From NCBI GenBank assembly GCA_000004695.1, contig CM000151.3, forward strand, positions 6,400,001-6,464,000: a stretch of DNA of 64,000 nt. Direction: 5' to 3'. Under the pieces are notes generated by a model. It did no database searches. It was not told the origin of the DNA and saw only the letters and a list, made by a program, of their open reading frames with translations. The position numbers and the translations under genes are program-made. Every line of letters starts with the position of its first letter. Position 1 is the stretch's first letter. Positions 48,691 to 59,982 of the stretch are shown here, one piece after another. This stretch comes from Dictyostelium discoideum. Its lineage: Eukaryota.

Positions 48691-50078
48691 ATGACATTAG
48701 ACCCATATTCAGGATCAGTCGATTGCCGTGACTGGAAGAAATCAGCAATTAAAAAAGCTATTGAAGATGGTATATTTAAAGAACATGACTATGTAATGCT
48801 TTATAATCTTGACGAATTCAGAGCACTTGCCAAAGAAGCCTGCGACAACTTAAAAGGATTACAAACTATGGCAGTTAAATGTAATCCAGTTATGAGCTTA
48901 ATGAAAGAAGCAATTAAAGCTGGTCTTGGTGCTGAAGTTGCTTCATTTGGTGAATTAAGAATTGCAGAAATAGCTGGTTTTGAACCATCTGTAAGTATTC
49001 CAAAAATTTTTAATTCTTTTAAAATAAAAAAAAAATAAAAAAATAAAAAAATAAATCCTAATTTTTTTTTTTAATGAAAAAGAAAATTATATTTGATTCA
49101 CCAATTAAAACAAAAAAAGAATTAGAATATGCATTAAATTTAGGTGTTGTAATTAATATTGATAATTTTGAAGAATTAGAAACTATAGAATCAATTGTTT
49201 CAAAATTTTCAAAGGAAAAATATGAAAGTCTTTCGTTGGGTATTAGAGTGAATCCACAAGTTGGAGCAGGTAAATTAACTGATCTTAGTACAGGTGTACC
49301 AACATCTAAATTTGGTATTGGTATTGAACATAAAGATAAGATCATCGATGCCTATGTACGTAACAAATTTTTAAAGGGAGTTCATATTCATGTTGGATCA
49401 CAAGGTTTTGAAATTTCAAATATATCAGAATCTGCAGTTAAAGTTATGAATTTAGTGAAAGAGATTAATGCACGTGATGATACAAAATCTCAAATTACAT
49501 TCTTTAATATGGGTGGTGGTTTATCAGTAAACTTTGAATCAGAAGAGACTTCACCAACTTTCACTCAATATGCCAATCACATGAAACAATTATTACCAGA
49601 ATTATTCAATGGTGAATTTTTATTGATTACCGAATTTGGTCGTTCCTATTGGGCAAAATGTGGTGTCGTAGTTTCAACAGTTGAATATACAAAATCAAGT
49701 GGTGATCGTGAAATCGCAATTTGTCATGCCGGTGCAAATATGTACATTAGAACCGTTTATCAATTCCCATTGTGGAGAATTAGAGTAACCATTTTCGATT
49801 CAAATGGTGAATATAAAACTGGAAATGAAAAAATCACAGATATCGCTGGTCCTTGTTGTTTTGCCGCTGATGTTTTAGTAAAAGAAAGATTATTACCACC
49901 AATTAAAAAAGATGATTTCATTATGGCACATGATAGTGGTGCTTATATGCTTTCAAGTTATTCTCATTATAATTTAAGATTAGCTCCACCAATTTTCTCT
50001 TTTAATACCACAAATAATACAATTGAATTAATTAAAAAAGGTGAAACTATTGAAGATAAAATTAATTTCTTTTCTTAA
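48691..50078 (+). CDS. Fold-type III PLP-dependent decarboxylase of the Orn/DAP/Arg decarboxylase family, most like diaminopimelate decarboxylase (LysA). 2 exons: join(48691..48990, 49083..50078), about 431 aa.
   Basis: Donor TCT|GTAAGT (48991) and acceptor tttaatgaaaaAG (49081-49082), phase 0. LysA-like motifs present: IRVNPQVGAG, HIHVGSQ, GGGLSV, EFGRSY (EPGR), GPCCFAADV (GPLCESGDV), HDSGAY, SSYSHYN. Confidence 0.8.
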
Positions 50079-50282
50079 AAAAATAAAATTATATTAAAAT
50101 TGTAAATCATTTTTAAACTTTTTATTTTATTAATTAATAATAATAATAATTAATAATAAAATGATTAAATAAAAAAATAAATAAAATAAAAAATTTTAAA
50201 TTAAAGGAGAAATACAAGATATTTATTATTAAATTGGAAAAAAAAGCCAATTATTATTATTATTATTATTGGTTTTTTTTTT

Positions 50283-52161
50283 TTAAAAAAGATCAGAAAT
50301 TAAATCTTTTGACGATGGTTTACAATTTTCAGGAATATCAAATGAAGCAATGATTTGTTTTGAAACTTTGGTAACTTCAAAACAAAGATCTTGAATTAAG
50401 AATGGGATTGATTGAGCAACATTTGGTGAGATTAAGTGATTTGAAACGAACCAACCTAAATCTTCTTCAATGGAGACAAGAGCGTCCAACATAATTAAAT
50501 GAGCTAATGGTTTAACGTTTTTAAGTTTTAATGTATTGATAGAGTTTTGGAAAACGATTTTAGTCATGTGAGCAAAACCTAATTTGACAGCCCATGGAAT
50601 TGCATTGTTAAAAGCGAAATAAGCAGGTTCTTTAGAGTTGCTAATGATTTGTTTTAATTCGGCCAAACGAATCTCTTCTCTAGTTTCAAATAATTGATTA
50701 ATATTTGAAAAATTGAATAATAACGATTTGGCATCTTCACCATCTAAATAGATACGATTGGTAGTGGTATTTGTTTGTTTTTGTTTTACACCTAATAAAT
50801 ACTTGGCCAATTGTTGCATGAGAACAGTATTATCACCTTCATATGTACAAACGATATCACAATCATTTTTAAATTCAGCTATACGATTTGCTGAACGGTA
50901 ACCTTGACCACCACAAGCTTCACGACAAGTTTGGAGTGCTGCAACACAGAACCAACTGTAAACTGCTTTGATACCTGAGCAATGGGCATGGATTGAAGCT
51001 GGTAATTTCTCTTGACATAATTCATTGGTTAAACGTTGAATGTAAAGATCAAACAAGATGGTTCTTGCCAATGGTGCCATAAGACGACGTTGTTGTGAAC
51101 TGAGAGTAATCAATGGAAGCTCATTATTTGCAGATGGACCAAACTGTTTTCTAATATGTGAGAATTCAATAGCAATAGAGAGGGAGGTTTTGGCAGCACC
51201 TGAACAACCTTTAGTGATTGCCATTCTACCAACAATGAATGGTGCCATTGTTGCAGCGAAATTCTTTATTGGTGTATTGAATTGACTCTTGTAAACACCG
51301 TCTTCGCTAACATCACTATATTTGTTTAAAAGGTTCTCTCTTGGGATACGAACTTGATCGAAACGAATTTGACCATTATCAATACCATTCAAACCTAACT
51401 TATGACCACAATCTTTAATGGTGATACCTTTCATGATTGCACCACTCTTTGGACAACGAAGTGGTACAACCAATGCATGAACACCATAATTTGTACCATC
51501 AATGATTAAGTTTGCGAAAACAGTAGTGTAGGTAGCATGAAGATAAGAACCACCAATCCAAAACTTTTCACTTGTTGGTGTTGGTGAATGAATGATAAAC
51601 TCTTTAGTTTGTTTATCGTAATGTGCAGTAGTTTCAATACCACGAACATTTGAACCATGACCAATCTCTGTCATTGCAAAGCAACCCATTGTCTTGAGGG
51701 TATTAGCATCTTCAATATATTTCTCATGTCTTGAGGTACCTAAAAACATGATTGTACCTCCAAATAATGTATAATGAACACCCAATTTGGTACAAACATT
51801 GTTATTATACAATGAAAACATTTCTACAACACCAGCATATCTGTGAAGGTTATTCTTAATATCAGTCAAATGAATTAATCCACTATTTGCAACAGCAACA
51901 CATTGTTCAAGTACTAATTGTCTATAGGTAGCCATATCCAATCCAATGAAATTCTCTTTGAATTTTGGATGATTTCTAATGAATTCTCTTGCTGCATCCT
52001 TATATTTACTTGCTTCAACTGAATCAATTAATAATTTTAATTCTCCAACATTTATATTTGCATCAATTGAATTAAATAATTCTTTTTCTAATACTTCATT
52101 TTTATTATTTGTTGTTTGACTATTAACATCTAAATGTTTTTTAATCTATATTATATATATG

Positions 52162-52204
<43 letters not shown>

Positions 52205-52364
52205 GGTATTAGTAACTACTTAAATATTGTTAATAAAAATAAAAAAAAAAAAAATATATATATTTAAATATTTTATTATAAAATATGTATGTATTAATAT
52301 TAATAAACTGAAAAAATAAAACTGATTATTTAATATTTACAATTTCAATTCTATTTTTATACAT
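50283..52364 (-). CDS. Peroxisomal acyl-CoA oxidase (ACOX), paralogue A. 2 exons: join(complement(52341..52364), complement(50283..52145)), about 628 aa.
   Basis: Exon 1 is ATGTATAAAAATAGAATTGAAATT|GTAAAT (MYKNRIEI), and the acceptor atatAG (plus 52146-52147) opens IKKHLDVNSQ..., both phase 0. The junction builds a PTS2 nonapeptide, RIEIIKKHL (R-[LI]-x5-H-L). ACOX blocks present: CFAMTEIGHGSNVRGIETTAHYD, GITIKDCGHKLGLNGIDNG, CREACGGQGY, CTYEGDNTV. The listed ORF start at 51941 is a TTG inside exon 2. Confidence 0.9.
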
Positions 52365-52849
52365 TGTTTGAGAGAGATAGAAAGAGAGAAATTAGGATTG
52401 TGTAGAAAAATAAAAATAAAATAAAAAAAAAAAAAAAAAAAATTAAATAAAAAAAAAAAGGTGAAATTTTTAAAATTATTTCATTAAAATTTAAAAAAAT
52501 AAAAAAAAAATGAAAATTTAAAATTTAAAATTTAAAAAAAACAAAAAAAGTGTCTCATCGCGTTATGAAATATCTAAATAAATGATGCCATAAAAATAAA
52601 TTTGAAATTTCCAATGCAATTGGCAACCATTATTTTCATTTTTTTTTTTTTTTTTTTTAAGCCAAAAACGATTATATTAAATCATGAAATGAAATTTCAA
52701 ATAAAAGGCAAAAAAAAAAAAAAGAAAAAAAAAAAAAAATTATTTTTTGTAAAAAAAAAAAAAAATATTATTTTCAAATTATGAATACTAATATTTATTT
52801 CAATTTAGTAATGTCATATGTTAATAATTTTGATTTTTTTTTTTTTCTT

Positions 52850-53171
52850 TTAAAATAATGATAAAGTTCCAATTAATTCTCCACCTAAAATTAAACCCTT
52901 AACACCACCTTCAATTCCTCCAACTAAAACACCACTAGCAACACCAACTAAACTACCTAACAAACTTCCTAAAACATTGAATTGTGCTTTTTCGCCACCA
53001 TAATTAACACTTTGTAATGAACTTGAGGCAATTTCATTCTTTGAGTTATTTTTAATTGAACCGATTTTAGTGATTGATTCTATCGTTTTATATTAAAATA
53101 TTAATTAATATAGTTTTATTTATATAAAAATAAGAAAAAAAAAAAATATGAAACTTACTTAAAATTGACAT
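52850..53171 (-). CDS. Novel small glycine-zipper (GxxxG-repeat) hydrophobic protein, 80 aa. 2 exons: join(complement(53159..53171), complement(52850..53079)). Not in the ORF track.
   Basis: ATGTCAATTTTAA|GTAAGT (MSIL plus 1 nt), with an 80-nt intron ending at aacgatAG (plus 53080-53081). Phase 1 A+AA = K leads into 76 open codons: SITKIGSIKNNSKNEIASSSLQSVNYGGEKAQFNVLGSLLGSLVGVASGVLVGGIEGGVKGLILGGELIGTLSLF, then stop. Codon usage is Dictyostelium-like (GGT/GTT/TTA). The G/S/L-rich tail resembles glycine-zipper 2TM motifs. Confidence 0.45.
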
Positions 53172-54071
53172 TTTTAATTATTTTTATTTGTTTTTTTTTT
53201 TTTTTTTATATTAAGTTTATTGTTTTTTTTAGTTTTTTAATTAAATGATTAATTTAAAAAATAATCTTCATTTAAATATGAAAAAAAAAAATTTAGGAAA
53301 AGAATTATTTAAACAATTTTATTTTAAAAAAAAAAAAATCATATGAACCAATTATAGATTATTCTAAAATTTCGACAACACGATTGGACAAAATAATAAA
53401 CAAAAAAAAAAGGTATTAAAACATTATTAATTTTTAAAAAAAAAACATAAAATAAAATTTATAAAAACTTTGACCCTTTTATAAGAATTATAGAGATATA
53501 TTTAATGATTTTATTCCATACACAAGTAAGTTGTTTTGTTTTAAAAAAAAAAAAAGAAAACTAAAAAAGTAATGATATTAAAAAAAAAAAAAAAAAATGG
53601 GGTGTGTTAAATCTGATATATATAGTTAAATATTTTTTTACCTTTTTTTTATATTAATTACCACACAATTAAATTAATTAAACTAATAAAATGTGGTATT
53701 GGTTTAATGTCTATTTATAGGATTAAAATGAAAACGAAAAAAACCCAATCATAGCATATACAAATTTATATTATATCTTTATCTTTTTCAATTATTTTTA
53801 TCATTAAAAAAAAAAAAAAAAAAAAAAATTATCCTTCATTTAATTAATTATAATTATATTATTTCATTTTTTTTTTTAATTAAAAATATAAATAATAATT
53901 TTATTAATATTAATAGAATTATTATTATTATTATTATTATTTTAAAATTATAAATTATAAATTAAATAAAAATTAAAATTAAATAATTTTAATTTATTTA
54001 ATTTTTATTTAATTTTATTATTATTATTTTTATTATTATTATTATTATTGTAATTATTATTGGTCATTTTT

Positions 54072-55950
54072 TTAAAAAAGATCAGAAATTAAATCCTTTG
54101 ATGATGGTTTACAATTTTCAGGAATATCAAATGAAGCGATAATTTGTTTTGAAACTTTAGTAACTTCAAAACAAAGATCTTGAATTAAGAATGGGATTGA
54201 TTGAGCAACATTTGGTGAGATTAAATGATTTGAAACGAACCAACCTAAATCTTCTTCAATGGAGACGAGAGCATCCAACATAATTAAATGAGTTAATGGT
54301 TTAACGTTTTTAAGTTTTAATGTATTGATAGAGTTTTGGAAAACGATTTTAGTCATGTGAGCAAAACCTAATTTGACAGCCCATGGAATTGCATTGTTAA
54401 AAGCGAAATAAGCAGATTCTTTAGAGTTGTCAATGATTTGTTTTAATTCGGCCAAACGCATCTCTTCTCTAGTTTCAAATAATTGATTTATATTCGAAAA
54501 ATTGAAAAATAACGATTTGGCATCTTCACCATCTAAATAGATACGATTGGTAGTGGTATTTGTTTGTTTTTGTTTTACACCTAATAAATACTTGGCCAAT
54601 TGTTGCATGAGAACAGTGTTATCACCTTCATATGTGCAAATGATATCACAATCATTTTTAAATTCAGCTATACGATTTGCTGAACGGTAACCCTGGCCAC
54701 CACAAGCTTCACGACAAGTTTGGAGTGCTGCAACACAGAACCAACTGTAAACTGCTTTGATACCAGAGCAGTGAGCATGGATTGAAGCTGGTAATTTCTC
54801 TTGACATAATTCATTGGTTAAACGTTGAATGTAAAGATCAAACAAGATGGTTCTTGCCAATGGTGCCATAAGACGACGTTGTTGAGAACTGAGAGTAATC
54901 AATGGAAGCTCTTTATTTGAAGATGGGCCAAATTGTTTTCTAATATGTGAGAATTCAATAGCAATAGAGAGGGAGGTTTTAGCAGCACCTGAACAACCTT
55001 TAGTGATTGCCATTCTACCAACGATGAATGGTGACATTGTTGCAGCGAAATTCTTTATTGGTGTATTGAATTGGCTCTTGTAAACACCATCTTCGCTAAC
55101 ATCACTATATTTGTTTAAAAGGTTCTCTCTTGGGATACGAACTTGATCGAAACGAATTTGACCATTATCAATACCATTCAAACCTAACTTATGACCACAA
55201 TCTTTAATGGTGATACCTTTCATGATTGCACCACTCTTTGGACAACGAAGTGGTACAATAAATGCATGAATACCATAGTTTGTACCATCAATGATTAAGT
55301 TTGCGAAAACTACAGCATAGGTAGCATGAAGATAAGCGCAACCAATCCAAAACTTTTCACTTGTTGGTGTTGGTGAATGAATGATAAACTCTTTAGTTTG
55401 TTTATCGTAATGTGCAGTAGTTTCAATACCACGAACATTTGAACCATGACCAATCTCTGTCATTGCAAAGCAACCCATTGTCTTGAGGGTATTAGCATCT
55501 TCAATATATTTCTCATGTCTTGAGGTACCTAAAAATATAATTGGACCTCCAAATAATGTATATTGAACACTCAATTTCGTTAAAATATTATTATTATACA
55601 ATGCAAACATTTCTAAAGCGCCTATATATCTGTGAAGGTTATTCTTAATATCAGTAAAATGAATTAATCCACGATTTGCAATTGCAGCACATTGCTCAAG
55701 TACTAATTGTCTATAGGTAGCCATATCCAATCCAATGAAATTCTCTTTGAATTTTGGATGATTTCTAATGAATTCTCTTGTTTCATCCTTATATTTACTT
55801 TCTTCAACTGAATCAATTAATAATTTTAATTCTCCAACATTAATATTTGTATCAATTGAATTAAATAATTCTTTTTCTAAAACTTCATCCTTATTATTTG
55901 TTGTTTGACTATTATTAACTTCTAAATGTTTTTTTATCTATATTATATAA

Positions 55951-55981
<31 letters not shown>

Positions 55982-56104
55982 CCTATTAGTATTGGTAATA
56001 TTTATAATAAAAAAAAATATTTTATTATGTATATTTGAAATATACATGAATTTAAAAAAATAAAACTATTTAATATTTACGATTTCAATTCTGTTTTTAT
56101 ACAT
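54072..56104 (-). CDS. Peroxisomal acyl-CoA oxidase (ACOX), paralogue B (tandem duplicate of 50283..52364). 2 exons: join(complement(56081..56104), complement(54072..55937)), about 629 aa.
   Basis: Same architecture as paralogue A. Exon 1 is ATGTATAAAAACAGAATTGAAATC|GTAAAT (MYKNRIEI), and the acceptor atatAG (plus 55938-55939) opens IKKHLEVNNSQ... The PTS2 RIEIIKKHL is conserved. The protein is about 95% identical to paralogue A, with substitutions scattered (e.g. VAVANSG to AAIANRG, GGSYLHATYTT to GCAYLHATYAV). Confidence 0.9.
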
Positions 56105-56943
56105 TGTTTGAGAGAGAAAGAAAAAGAGTATTTAAGATTGTGTTTTAAAAAAATAAAAAAACAAAATAAATAATTATTTTTATTATTATTTTAATAGAAA
56201 TGGGAATTAAAATTTTAATTGAAATTAAAAAATTTAAATTTAAAAAAAATAATAAAAAAAAAAAGTGTCCTATTGCTTTATTAAATAACTAATGAAATAA
56301 TCTCAAGTCCTGTTAACAGGAATAAAAAATTTTATATGTACAAAAAAAAGTTTATAATATTAAAAAAACAGTTAAAATATATTTATATAATAAAAATAAT
56401 AGATAACATGTTAACTGAAAATAAATTTCGTACATTCATGTAAAAATTCCAACATTTGGAAAAAAAAAAATATTAATATAATTTTAAATTTATTATAGTA
56501 AAAAAAAAAAAAATTAATTTAAAAAATAAAAAATATTTTAAAATTATAAATCTATTACAATTTAGTAATGTCACATTTTAATAATTTTGATTTTTTTTTT
56601 TTTTTTTTTGTTTTTTTTTTTTTTTTTTTCAAAACTTATTTATAAAATTTACCACACAAATTATCAAAACCAATCATATCATATCAAATCAATATTATAT
56701 TTTATCTTTTTCGATTATTATTATGATATTAAAAAAAAAAAAAAAATAAAAAAAAAAAAAAATAAAAAAAAAAAAAAAAAAAAATTTAATCAAACAAATT
56801 TTAAATCCTTTAATTAATTTGTTTTAATTCTTTTAATTCTTTGTTTAACTATAATTTTTAATATTATTAAAATTATTTTTATTATTATTTTTTAAAATTA
56901 TAAATTAAAAATTAAATAAAATTTTAAATTAAATAATTTTAAT

Positions 56944-57319
56944 TTATTTATTTAATTTTTTTAAATTTATTGGTAAAATTTTAGAAAATATAGAAATTGT
57001 TGGTTTACTTTTTGAATTTATTCTTGAATTTACATTTTTCAAATAGTTTAAAAGATGATGTTCATCATATTTAATAATTCTTTTTCTTGGGGAAAGATCA
57101 ATTGTTGATAAATATTTTGCCAATGGTTTTGGATGATATTCAACTAAATGTTCTAAAATATGACTATGTCCTCTTGAATAAGATATTGAAATATGTTCTT
57201 TAGTTAATGGTAATGATAATGGTGATACAAATATCATTGACGATAATCCATTAATTGATAAATGAATCGGACTTGATGGTGATGATGAAATTTGTTGTTG
57301 ATTTTTTGTTGGTGATAAA

Positions 57320-57357
<38 letters not shown>

Positions 57358-59818
57358 TGTTGGTGATGATGAAATTGAATTTATTGGTAAAATTGGTAAA
57401 TTTACTGTTGGTATTGATGATGATTGGATTGGTGAAGAGGAAGAAGAAGGAGATGAAGAAGATGAAGAAGATGATGAAGATGAAGATAAAGAAATTGATG
57501 AAGTTGATAGTGAATTTGAAGGTATCATTATTGGTGAAACCTTATTACTCATTGATGGTGAAGAAATACTATTGATATTGTTATTATTGTTATTATTATT
57601 ATTATTAATTGATAAAGTATGATAAATTGGTGGTGGAGATGATGAATTTGGAGTACGTGGTGTAGTTGAACCACTTGGTTGTAAACAATATTTTATAATA
57701 TCTAAATAACCATAATTGAAAGCAGGTTTTAAAATATGAGAAAAATCTAAATTAACAGATACAGTTCTTGATACAACATCTTTAAAATATTTTAAAGTTG
57801 TAAGATCACCAGCTTCACCAATTGCAATCATTGTTGCTTCTGTGATTTGTACATCTCTTGGACAATATTGTTCGATAATATATTTAACAGTATCAAAACA
57901 AGTACCAGAGATAGCATTGATTAAAGCTTGTTCAGTACACCCTTCAGTCCTATTCTTTTGAAGGAACTGAATGACATCTAAATTACCATTGGAAGCAGCA
58001 TTGTTAATGGCCGCTTTACTACAAGGTTGGCCAGAATTATGTAAAAACTTGACCATCTCTAAATCACCCAAATAAGCTGCATTGCTAACGGCCCTACTTG
58101 TAGCTCCTTCAGTACGATGATTCAATAGATAACGTACCACCTCTTCATGACCATTATAAACTGCTTTATCAACAGCATCGGTTGTACAATGTGCAGATGT
58201 TCTATTCTCTGTTAAATATTTAACAATTGATAAATGACCATTTATAGCTGCCTTATCAATTGCATTACCGATGGATAACGTTTGGTCCAATTCATTTAAA
58301 TATTGAACGATTTCAAAGAAACCACTTGCAGATGAAATTTCCATACCACTACAATAGGATTGAGGTTGTAGATAAAAAGGTTCACCACCAAATATAACCA
58401 AAGCTTTAATTGCTGCTAAATTATTATATATACAACAATCTGAGAGTAAATTTGGGTTGAAACCACCATCTGGTATTGGTTTCTCTTGAAGTAGATAAGC
58501 CAATAGATCAGGTCTATCAACGAATCTAACAGCAATATCGAATGCTTTAGCAGTGATTTCAATTCCCAATCTATTACGACAAACTTTAATCAATTCTAAA
58601 TTCTTATATAATAGAGCAGATGCAATGAAATCCTCATTAAAGTTTACTCTAAAGAAACCTTCGAAATCAATATTACCAGCATGAGACATATAAAATTCTA
58701 AAATTTCCAATTGACCTTTACTAATTGACAATGTGAAAACTTCAATATTATTTGGTTGATATAATGTATACAAATATTTTACAATCTCAATATGACCACC
58801 TTCAATTGCTCTTTTTGTAGCACTATACAATGGTGATTCAATATGTGAATCTGGTGCCAATACAACAGTACTTGATGATCTACCACCTCTTGGACTATAG
58901 GGTATATTAATTAATGGTGTTGTATTGGTTGGTGGTATAATATTATTTTGAATTAAATATTTTAAACAATCTAAATGACCATATTGTGCTGCTAAATCTA
59001 ATGCTTTTGACCTTTTTGGTGTTGATGGTGGTGTTGATGAATTTATAATTGGTGATGATCCATTACTATTATTATTACTATTATTATTACTACCACTATT
59101 GTTACCACTATTATTATTATTATTATTACCACTATTATTATTGATATTATTATTATTATTATTAAATCCACTGCCACCCAGTATATTACCATTATTACCT
59201 AAATTTTTATGAAGATATTGTAAAATTTCTAAACTACCATTTGAAGAAGCATGATCAATTGCAAATAAAGTACATGGTTCATTCAATTGTTGATGAATAT
59301 ATTTAACCAATTCTAAATCATTGAATGCAACAGCATTTTCCATTGCACTATCAGTGCAACCATCATTTCTATTCTCTTTTAAGAATTTCACCATTTGTAA
59401 ATTACCCCAACGTGATGCATTATCGATAGCATAGGGTGATGCAGTGTAACCTTTGTTATGTAAATAAACCACCATTTCATAATTACCATAATATGCAGCA
59501 TGATCAATTAATGTTGGATATAATCTTGGAAAATATTCAATATATCTTTCAAAACACATTTTAAAAATATTGAAATCTGGTATTGAAAATATGATTTTTC
59601 TACAAACTGATGATATTATCAAATTATGACCTTGTTGAATCTTATCTTTAATTAATCCCCAATGTTTATGATTTATCATCCATTCTAATGATATTATATC
59701 TTTATATTTTCTACTTATAACTTTACTTCCAAATCTTTTAACACCTTTAAATATTTTACTTCTAATTTTAAAATTTGATAAAATTTTTGAAAATAAAATT
59801 GAATTTTTATCATCATTT

Positions 59819-59856
<38 letters not shown>

Positions 59857-59982
59857 ATTATTATACATTTCCAACTCTTCATTTTTAATTTCTGATTGAA
59901 TTGTTGGTGATTTTAATGTTAAGATTGATCTTGATGTTGGTGAACATTCTGTAACTATTATTGATGTTGTAGTTAATGACAT
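56944..59982 (-). CDS. Protein with about 20 divergent ankyrin-like repeats (consensus ..A.d.Aa.nGhLe.vkyLhen.t.gCt..a....), N/S-rich linkers, 1012 aa, single exon.
   Basis: Continuous ORF with ATG at 59982. Repeated ~33-aa units such as AIDNASRWGNLQMVKFLKENRNDGCTDSAMENAVAFNDLELVKYIHQQ and AIDKAAINGHLSIVKYLTENRTSAHCTTDAVDKAVYNGHEEVVRYLLNHRTEG. Confidence 0.7.

Follow-up and report, generated by a model that had tools for sequence, protein, structure and literature searches.

A predicted type 2 peroxisomal targeting signal joined by splicing in two unequally diverging tandem acyl-CoA oxidase genes of Dictyostelium discoideum

How might an acyl-CoA oxidase (ACOX) without a C-terminal peroxisomal targeting signal of type 1 (PTS1) reach the peroxisome, and what happens to such a gene once it has been duplicated in tandem? 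These questions are raised by a 64,000-nt window of Dictyostelium discoideum AX4 chromosome 2, whose minus strand carries two ACOX genes in head-to-tail order, here called A and, upstream of it, B. An initial annotation had proposed that each copy carries an N-terminal signal of type 2 (PTS2) split by an intron. We consider it likely, from sequence comparisons, that both genes are functional, that splicing joins the two halves of a PTS2 in each, that A is the ancestral gene, and that B is a faster-evolving duplicate partly homogenised with A by gene conversion. The genes and their PTS2 arrangement were already known from the reference annotation and from a 2011 survey (PMC3178647). New here are the motif and intron position in eight dictyostelid lineages, an exon in D. 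purpureum, the asymmetric divergence of B, and the conversion; the published papers that we found do not mention the position of the intron relative to the signal, the asymmetric divergence or gene conversion.

The window is very AT-rich (15-33% GC per 2-kb bin). When positions 49800-56600 were read directly and the minus strand was translated, two long open reading frames (ORFs) appeared, each with a short ATG-initiated segment ahead of it; exon boundaries were located by script (Table 1). The span 50283-56104, given in the initial annotation, runs exactly from the stop codon of A to the ATG of B. Both first exons are followed by GTAAAT, and both introns terminate in ATATAG. An intron of about 195 nt had been proposed for each copy; this holds for A, whereas the B intron has 143 nt and resembles that of A at its two ends only. 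The spliced N-termini, distinguished by D14E, read MYKNRIEIIKKHLD (A) and MYKNRIEIIKKHLE (B), the C-terminus of both proteins is ...SKDLISDLF, and neither spliced product (628 aa for A, 629 aa for B) contains an internal stop codon. Over 1884 aligned nucleotides of coding sequence (CDS) the copies are 95.7% identical, and their proteins are 94.1% identical. In an exact-sequence look-up, spliced A was the same as XP_643323.1 (UniProt Q75JL8) and spliced B the same as XP_001732973.1 (UniProt B0G110), with no sequence difference; both entries are named acyl-CoA oxidase [Dictyostelium discoideum AX4]. Hence these gene models, 24-nt exon included, coincide with the reference annotation, and the initial description of a head-to-tail ACOX pair of about 95% identity, each copy with a first exon encoding MYKNRIEI, was accurate in these respects.

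Family assignment rests on domains, structures and motifs. Pfam matches were obtained to ACOX_C_alpha1 (PF22924; 3.7e-34, 118 bits against a cut-off of 27) and to the middle β domain of acyl-CoA dehydrogenases (ACAD; PF02770; 1.5e-12). The ACOX C-terminal domain (PF01756, cut-off 22.1 bits) scores 22.9 in B, above the cut-off, and 20.2 in A, just under it, and together the matches make up the domain set of the ACOX family. All nine top PDB matches are ACOX enzymes, the first being Yarrowia ACOX3 (5ys9; E = 1.3e-64). In the alignment with this protein the catalytic motif ctyEGDNtvl stands opposite CTWEGDNNVL, and the flavin-binding segment TE(L/I)GHGSN is present as mtEiGHGSNv opposite MTELGHGSNV. 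The EGDN and GHGSN motifs are the same in A and B.

Splicing of MYKNRIEI to IKKHL places the nonapeptide RIEIIKKHL at residues 5-13 of both proteins. This fits the broad PTS2 consensus [RK][LVIQ]xx[LVIHQ][LSGAK]x[HQ][LAF], which reportedly goes back to Petriv et al. in 2004; for the composition of this protein, the chance of a match to the broad motif within the first 30 positions is about 0.0014. The same consensus, without its [HQ] position, is given in PMC3465988. Homologues were collected in a search of 5.8 billion proteins, and their N-termini bear R-[ILV]-x5-[HQ]-[LIF], with freely varying residues around it. Nonapeptide positions 1, 2, 8 and 9 are R, I/L/V, H/Q and L/I/F in 23 of 23 N-termini, from dictyostelids to a jakobid, and an environmental dictyostelid contig has the same pattern. 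The motif is N-terminal in every full-length dictyostelid orthologue (D. citrinum, D. firmibasis, D. dimigraforme, T. lacteum, P. violaceum, C. fasciculata, H. album and A. subglobosum) and recurs in distant eukaryotic homologues, including transcriptome-derived ones and that of the jakobid Andalucia. The signal is thus kept while its flanks vary, as expected if the N-terminus is a PTS2, which is how the initial annotation had read it. A PTS1 tripeptide [SAC][KRH][LM] is absent from the C-terminus of A and B (-DLF), in agreement with that annotation, and from the orthologues, which end in -DLF, -SLL, -DLY, -IYN or -LIN.

The genomic loci of orthologues were retrieved and their exon 1/exon 2 junctions were read. 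In eight of the eight dictyostelid lineages examined the intron interrupts the reading frame in phase 0 at the homologous codon boundary, after nonapeptide residue 4 and before residue 5, so that the check proposed in the initial annotation, conservation of the intron in orthologues, came out in its favour. The junctions are MYHLRIEN / IKNHL in T. lacteum, MYRERILQ / ISKHL in C. fasciculata, MDRINI / IAQHL in H. album, MYTNRIEN / IINQI in P. violaceum, MMDSANTRLEN / IASHL in A. subglobosum and MYNNRIEN / IINHL in the environmental contig. The database protein of D. purpureum (DICPUDRAFT_152296, GL871062.1) begins MKEIKNHL, without the PTS2 arginine; its MKE comes from a 9-nt exon (L001:1501-1509) that lies about 1 kb upstream and is joined to the same acceptor. 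At L001:2472-2495, 90 nt upstream of this acceptor, we found a perfectly conserved exon, ATG TAT AAA AAC AGA ATC GAT ATT (MYKNRIDI), whose donor is GTATGT. An annotation error in the D. purpureum model therefore probably hides the PTS2 exon.

Neither the length of the intron (195, 143, 200, 133 and 209 nt) nor its sequence is conserved. A more distant T. lacteum paralogue (P0117) encodes a PTS2-like MDRIEILSNHF without an intron, so that the intron, within the range tested, belongs to this orthologue group and not to the signal itself; a greater age of the intron, beyond the dictyostelid orthologue group, was rejected on the same ground. We conclude that the intron is old and fixed in position within the dictyostelids, and we see no evidence that it has a regulatory role.

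Splicing of the 24-nt exon 1 to the 1.86-kb exon 2 produces the N-terminus MYKNRIEIIKKHL. If the motif acts as predicted, Pex7 would recognise residues 5-13 in the cytosol, Pex5 serving as its co-receptor. Such a route would bring the FAD enzyme to the peroxisome matrix, where it would perform the first, H2O2-producing step of β-oxidation. The Pex7 gene does not lie within the window; an in-silico survey lists Pex7 of D. discoideum as 'yes' and its ACOX as 'PTS1, PTS2' (Gonzalez et al., 2011; PMC3178647, Table 3). The PTS2 of D. discoideum farnesyl diphosphate synthase (FDPS) works, and in yeast it needs Pex7 (Nuttall et al., 2012; PMC3465988); Pex5 is the PTS2 co-receptor in D. discoideum (PMC8172628). 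Acyl-CoA oxidase is a classical PTS2 cargo, and Arabidopsis has three PTS2 acyl-CoA oxidases (PMC7710942), a medium-chain ACOX with PTS2 being mentioned for the same plant in PMC3465988. Pex7-dependent import and a peroxisomal location are accordingly what the known biology of the signal would predict for A and B.

Substitutions between the two copies are distributed unequally. The coding sequences differ at 81 of 1884 sites, with Nei-Gojobori estimates of 0.113 for synonymous (dS) and 0.027 for nonsynonymous divergence (dN) and a ratio of 0.24. When the amino acid differences were polarised with seven close outgroups, 30 of the 38 that could be polarised proved to be derived in B, and they cluster in codons 85-240; the initial annotation had spoken of scattered substitutions, which this distribution contradicts. 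When the CDS of D. cf. discoideum served as outgroup, the B lineage was assigned 30 nonsynonymous and 22 synonymous nucleotide changes, against 8 and 16 for the A lineage. This asymmetry is significant for nonsynonymous changes (binomial p = 0.0005) and not significant for synonymous ones (p = 0.42). Along the B lineage dN/dS reaches about 1.6 for codons 85-145, falls to 0.77 for codons 146-240 and is 0.16 over the remainder, all from small counts; in codons 85-240 there are 20 nonsynonymous and 5 synonymous B-specific changes. The ratio between B-type genes of different genomes is 0.18, and hence these genes are still under constraint. A would then be the conserved ancestral gene and B a duplicate of the D. 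discoideum lineage that has the same signal and appears to remain under purifying selection, its protein having evolved about four times faster, chiefly in the last helix of the N-terminal α domain and at the start of the β domain.

The B-specific replacements S119A, V125I, C126L, G130S, H132Q, T139P and M141I are located in or just before this helix, which we aligned, ungapped and anchored on the following G-[TS] motif, to helix E of the ACAD family. In LCAD, a long-chain acyl-CoA dehydrogenase, helix E and the small residues that precede it shape the acyl cavity (PMC10925408). A BLASTP comparison with the human LCAD segment returned the expected register (offset +5) at a non-significant E of 3.3; the segment agreed with a check against 13 residue identities named in PMC10925408. 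The changes in B may map to the acyl-chain cavity that helix E lines in ACAD enzymes.

The history of the duplication is mosaic. A distance tree joins A to the single genes found in sister species, and it joins AX4 B, on a longer branch, to the B-type genes of other genomes labelled D. discoideum; derived B residues are common to AX4 and another such genome. Synonymous divergence is 0.113 between A and B within AX4, 0.121 between the A genes of AX4 and strain FIW, 0.185 between B genes, and 0.165-0.196 in cross comparisons of A with B. Among the paralogues of two genomes, 29 parsimony-informative sites support A|B orthology, 20 support identity within a genome and 1 supports the third partition. 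These conflicting signals are separated along the gene: 24 of the 29 orthology sites fall in nt 1-700 and 13 of the 20 within-genome sites fall after nt 700 (Fisher p = 0.001, Mann-Whitney p = 0.0045). Such a mosaic carries the signature of gene conversion over the 3' two-thirds of the gene, and this part of B would have been homogenised with A repeatedly. Given this conversion pattern, and given that A and B within AX4 are no further apart than the A genes of two genomes, dS cannot date the duplication. The alignment suggested for this purpose in the initial annotation did yield a dS (0.113), but a date based on it had to be rejected. An identity of 95% makes the duplication look younger than it is, and its description as recent did not survive the comparison with other genomes, in one of which B-type genes are present. 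Separately, a public genomic contig of 1930 nt (Logan SRR28564543; L007) has an exon 2 that is a patchwork of A-type and B-type segments; it represents either a recombinant or converted allele of another isolate or a collapse of paralogues during short-read assembly.

Several observations weigh against two functional genes with a spliced PTS2. The lysine at nonapeptide position 6 is outside the narrower consensus R[LVIQ]xx[LVIH][LSGA]x[HQ][LA], which the initial annotation had quoted as matched, so that RIEIIKKHL fits the broader consensus only. The sole proteomic detection is of copy A, which mass spectrometry quantified from 25 peptides in a crude fraction described as mitochondrial and which changes in early development (PMC8145953); we found no published localisation of either protein in the literature. 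Support from cDNA was sought in two short public contigs of close relatives, L007 and JGI Ga0256787_1014592 (L011), and both retain the intron and are genomic. Among the dictyostelid orthologues examined, some of the positions replaced in B are invariant (T139P, L484F) or nearly invariant (G207C); some related genomes also contain degenerate B-type or extra copies, and B may therefore have lost part of its function. That the enzymes are mitochondrial or cytosolic, as the fraction in which A was quantified might suggest, is nevertheless very improbable: they belong to the acyl-CoA oxidases and not to the dehydrogenases, their PTS2 is present and conserved, the acidic residues read in the N-terminus are atypical of a mitochondrial presequence, and peroxisomes co-sediment with crude mitochondria. 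Another possibility, which we regard as unlikely, though less so, is that the motif is not a working signal and that import proceeds through a Pex5-dependent internal patch, as in yeast Pox1, or by piggy-backing. Yeast ACOX, with neither PTS1 nor PTS2, does use Pex5 (cited in PMC3465988; PMC7135854), and ACOX enzymes are oligomeric, which would permit piggy-backing; yet four key positions kept in all dictyostelid orthologues and in distant eukaryotes, among neighbours that are free to vary, are hard to explain without function, and PTS2 acyl-CoA oxidases are established in plants (PMC7710942). Very improbable, too, is a role of the intron as a regulatory device that yields, through an alternative first exon or through retention, an isoform without signal outside the peroxisome. 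Its position is fixed across Dictyostelia, and the D. purpureum annotation does splice another mini-exon to the same acceptor with loss of the arginine; however, this model bypasses the conserved MYKNRIDI exon and is more simply seen as an error, intron length and sequence are free to change, and Dictyostelium genes typically have a short first exon and a 5'-proximal intron. An isoform arising by retention was rejected, since translation would end after 12 codons, the next in-frame methionine being residue 78, inside the folded domain.

With a spliced PTS2 in two functional genes as the preferred reading, the role of B may be considered separately. The concentration of changes around the putative acyl cavity is compatible with an altered substrate range, that is, with the sub-functionalisation raised by the initial annotation, and likewise with relaxed constraint. 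Tentatively, B could be a young neofunctionalised oxidase in which selection keeps the region of codons 85-240 distinct while conversion homogenises the rest; it would then be a second PTS2-imported ACOX with a preference for other chain lengths or for branched substrates. Somewhat doubtful, in our judgement, is the alternative that B is a redundant duplicate drifting towards loss under relaxed constraint. The excess of nonsynonymous over synonymous changes in B, reversed in A, would accord with drift, as would the replacements at invariant or nearly invariant positions; a dN/dS of about 1.6 is also expected from neutrality when counts are small, and the low ratio in the 3' part could merely reflect conversion from A. 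Related genomes contain a degenerate copy of 396 aa (P0010), an internally deleted B-type copy (P0126) and a frameshifted middle copy. Against drift stand the 629-codon ORF, splice sites and PTS2 of B, all of which are intact, the low ratio between B genes, and the sharing of derived B residues by two genomes whose A orthologues differ by a dS of 0.12.

Table 1. Features of the ACOX locus and its neighbours, in window coordinates
Feature	Position	Strand	Description
Orn/DAP/Arg decarboxylase, last exon	49074-50078	+	convergent with copy A; also the neighbour in D. purpureum and P. violaceum
Copy A exon 2	50283-52145	-	620 codons and stop; ACAD-middle, ACOX C-alpha1 and ACOX C-terminal domains; catalytic YEGDN glutamate
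Copy A exon 2, first five codons	52131-52145	-	encode PTS2 residues 5-9, I-K-K-H-L
Copy A intron	52146-52340	-	195 nt, GTAAAT...ATATAG, phase 0; between PTS2 nonapeptide residues 4 and 5
Copy A exon 1	52341-52364	-	24 nt, MYKNRIEI, ATG TAT AAA AAT AGA ATT GAA ATT; spliced product XP_643323.1/Q75JL8
Copy A exon 1, codons 5-8	52341-52352	-	encode PTS2 residues 1-4, R-I-E-I
Copy A 5' flank	52365-52590	-	aligns with B 5' flank, about 66-83% identity in blocks; upstream limit of clear duplication
Small two-exon glycine-rich gene	52850-53171	-	about 80 aa, MSILKSITKIGS...GGELIGTLSLF; between the ACOX copies
Copy B exon 2	54072-55937	-	621 codons and stop, intact; 30 of 38 polarised amino acid differences, mostly codons 85-240
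Copy B intron	55938-56080	-	143 nt; donor and acceptor motifs and phase as in copy A intron
Copy B exon 1	56081-56104	-	24 nt, MYKNRIEI; two synonymous changes relative to A, at CDS nt 12 and 24; spliced product XP_001732973.1/B0G110
Copy B 5' flank	56105-56303	-	homologous to A 5' flank
Ankyrin-repeat protein gene	56944-59982	-	1012 aa; upstream of copy B

A and B can be aligned from just beyond their stop codons as far as a point about 250 nt upstream of each ATG; outside these limits there are islands only. Self-BLAST of the AT-rich intergenic DNA gave many low-complexity matches, and three collinear blocks were usable. One island pairs 52805-52850 with 56556-56600 (CAATTTAGTAATGTCA.AT.TTAATAATTTTGATTTTT), and another, of about 300 nt and 72% identity, pairs 53741-54030 with 56666-56982. 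These positions suggest that duplication first involved the whole 3.79-kb period; about 0.9 kb, with the small gene in it, would then have disappeared from the spacer upstream of B. The sole Pfam match of the small glycine-rich protein is Bacteriocin_IIc, at 18.6 bits and under the cut-off of 27.1. Two other genomes have the small gene in the same place, next to the A-type ACOX on its upstream side, and in one contig (L009) it is apparently unannotated. The decarboxylase adjoins the ACOX locus wherever neighbouring genes could be read, and its presence beside the gene in D. purpureum and P. violaceum indicates that copy A is at the ancestral position.

A single ACOX copy was found at the locus in D. 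cf. discoideum FIZ (L009:8001-10093), D. purpureum and P. violaceum, and two in D. discoideum AX4. Strain FIW (L010:4611-13845) has three copies, the middle one frameshifted near codons 57-81, so that it is either a pseudogene or the product of a sequencing error; another cf. discoideum genome has one intact copy and the degenerate 396-aa copy. D. dimigraforme (P0004, P0125) has an A-type orthologue of more than 90% identity together with a second gene that is only 62% identical (MYTKRIEIITNHF...). A counterpart of this second gene was not seen for D. discoideum in the output of the homologue search, and it may be an older paralogue kept in only some group-4 species. Following the dictyostelid orthologues, the next-best matches, at 36-40% identity, combine eukaryotic ACOX with a large number of bacterial proteins; the bacterial ones are about 750-790 aa long, come from Bacteroidota (Flavobacterium, Saprospiraceae, Belliella) and have an extra N-terminal ACAD domain.

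The analysis confirms the reference annotation of both genes, and for these it means little beyond housekeeping. More generally, conservation of the PTS2 type of acyl-CoA oxidase, which plants also have and which had been tabulated for D. discoideum, extends throughout Dictyostelia. Since the 24-nt exon holds half of the signal, gene models without that exon lose the signal and will mislead in-silico surveys of the peroxisome proteome; the D. purpureum model is apparently such a case. The tandem pair is also a clean, small example of one-sided divergence in a putative substrate-pocket helix combined with conversion, in which dating by dS is unreliable, and it is suited to work on the divergence of ACOX substrate range in a tractable amoeba.

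The closest solved structure, ACOX3 of Yarrowia lipolytica (5ys9; 708 aa), shares the FAD and catalytic core with its EGDN glutamate; the alignment spans residues 125-600, leaves the first 124 outside, and is thus silent on the targeting region. The plant PTS2 acyl-CoA oxidases, namely ACX2, ACX3 and ACX6 of Arabidopsis and the long-chain ACOX of pumpkin, have in common with A and B the ACOX fold, an N-terminal R-[IA]-x5-H-[LI], the lack of a PTS1 and a role in peroxisomal β-oxidation, but are only about 40% identical to the Dictyostelium copies. Plant PTS2 prepeptides are cleaved after import. FDPS of D. discoideum itself, an unrelated enzyme, likewise has an N-terminal nonapeptide, and its residues 1-22 are enough to take GFP to peroxisomes (PMC3465988), by the route that the ACOX copies would use. 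Its signal has an atypical alanine at position 2 and was demonstrated by experiment, whereas that of ACOX is predicted and has the canonical isoleucine there. Pox1/Fox1 of S. cerevisiae belongs to the same enzyme family and, like the Dictyostelium copies, has no PTS1; it has no PTS2 either and uses Pex5 through an internal 'PTS3' patch (PMC3465988, ref. 18; PMC7135854), in contrast to the Dictyostelium enzymes with their conserved PTS2.

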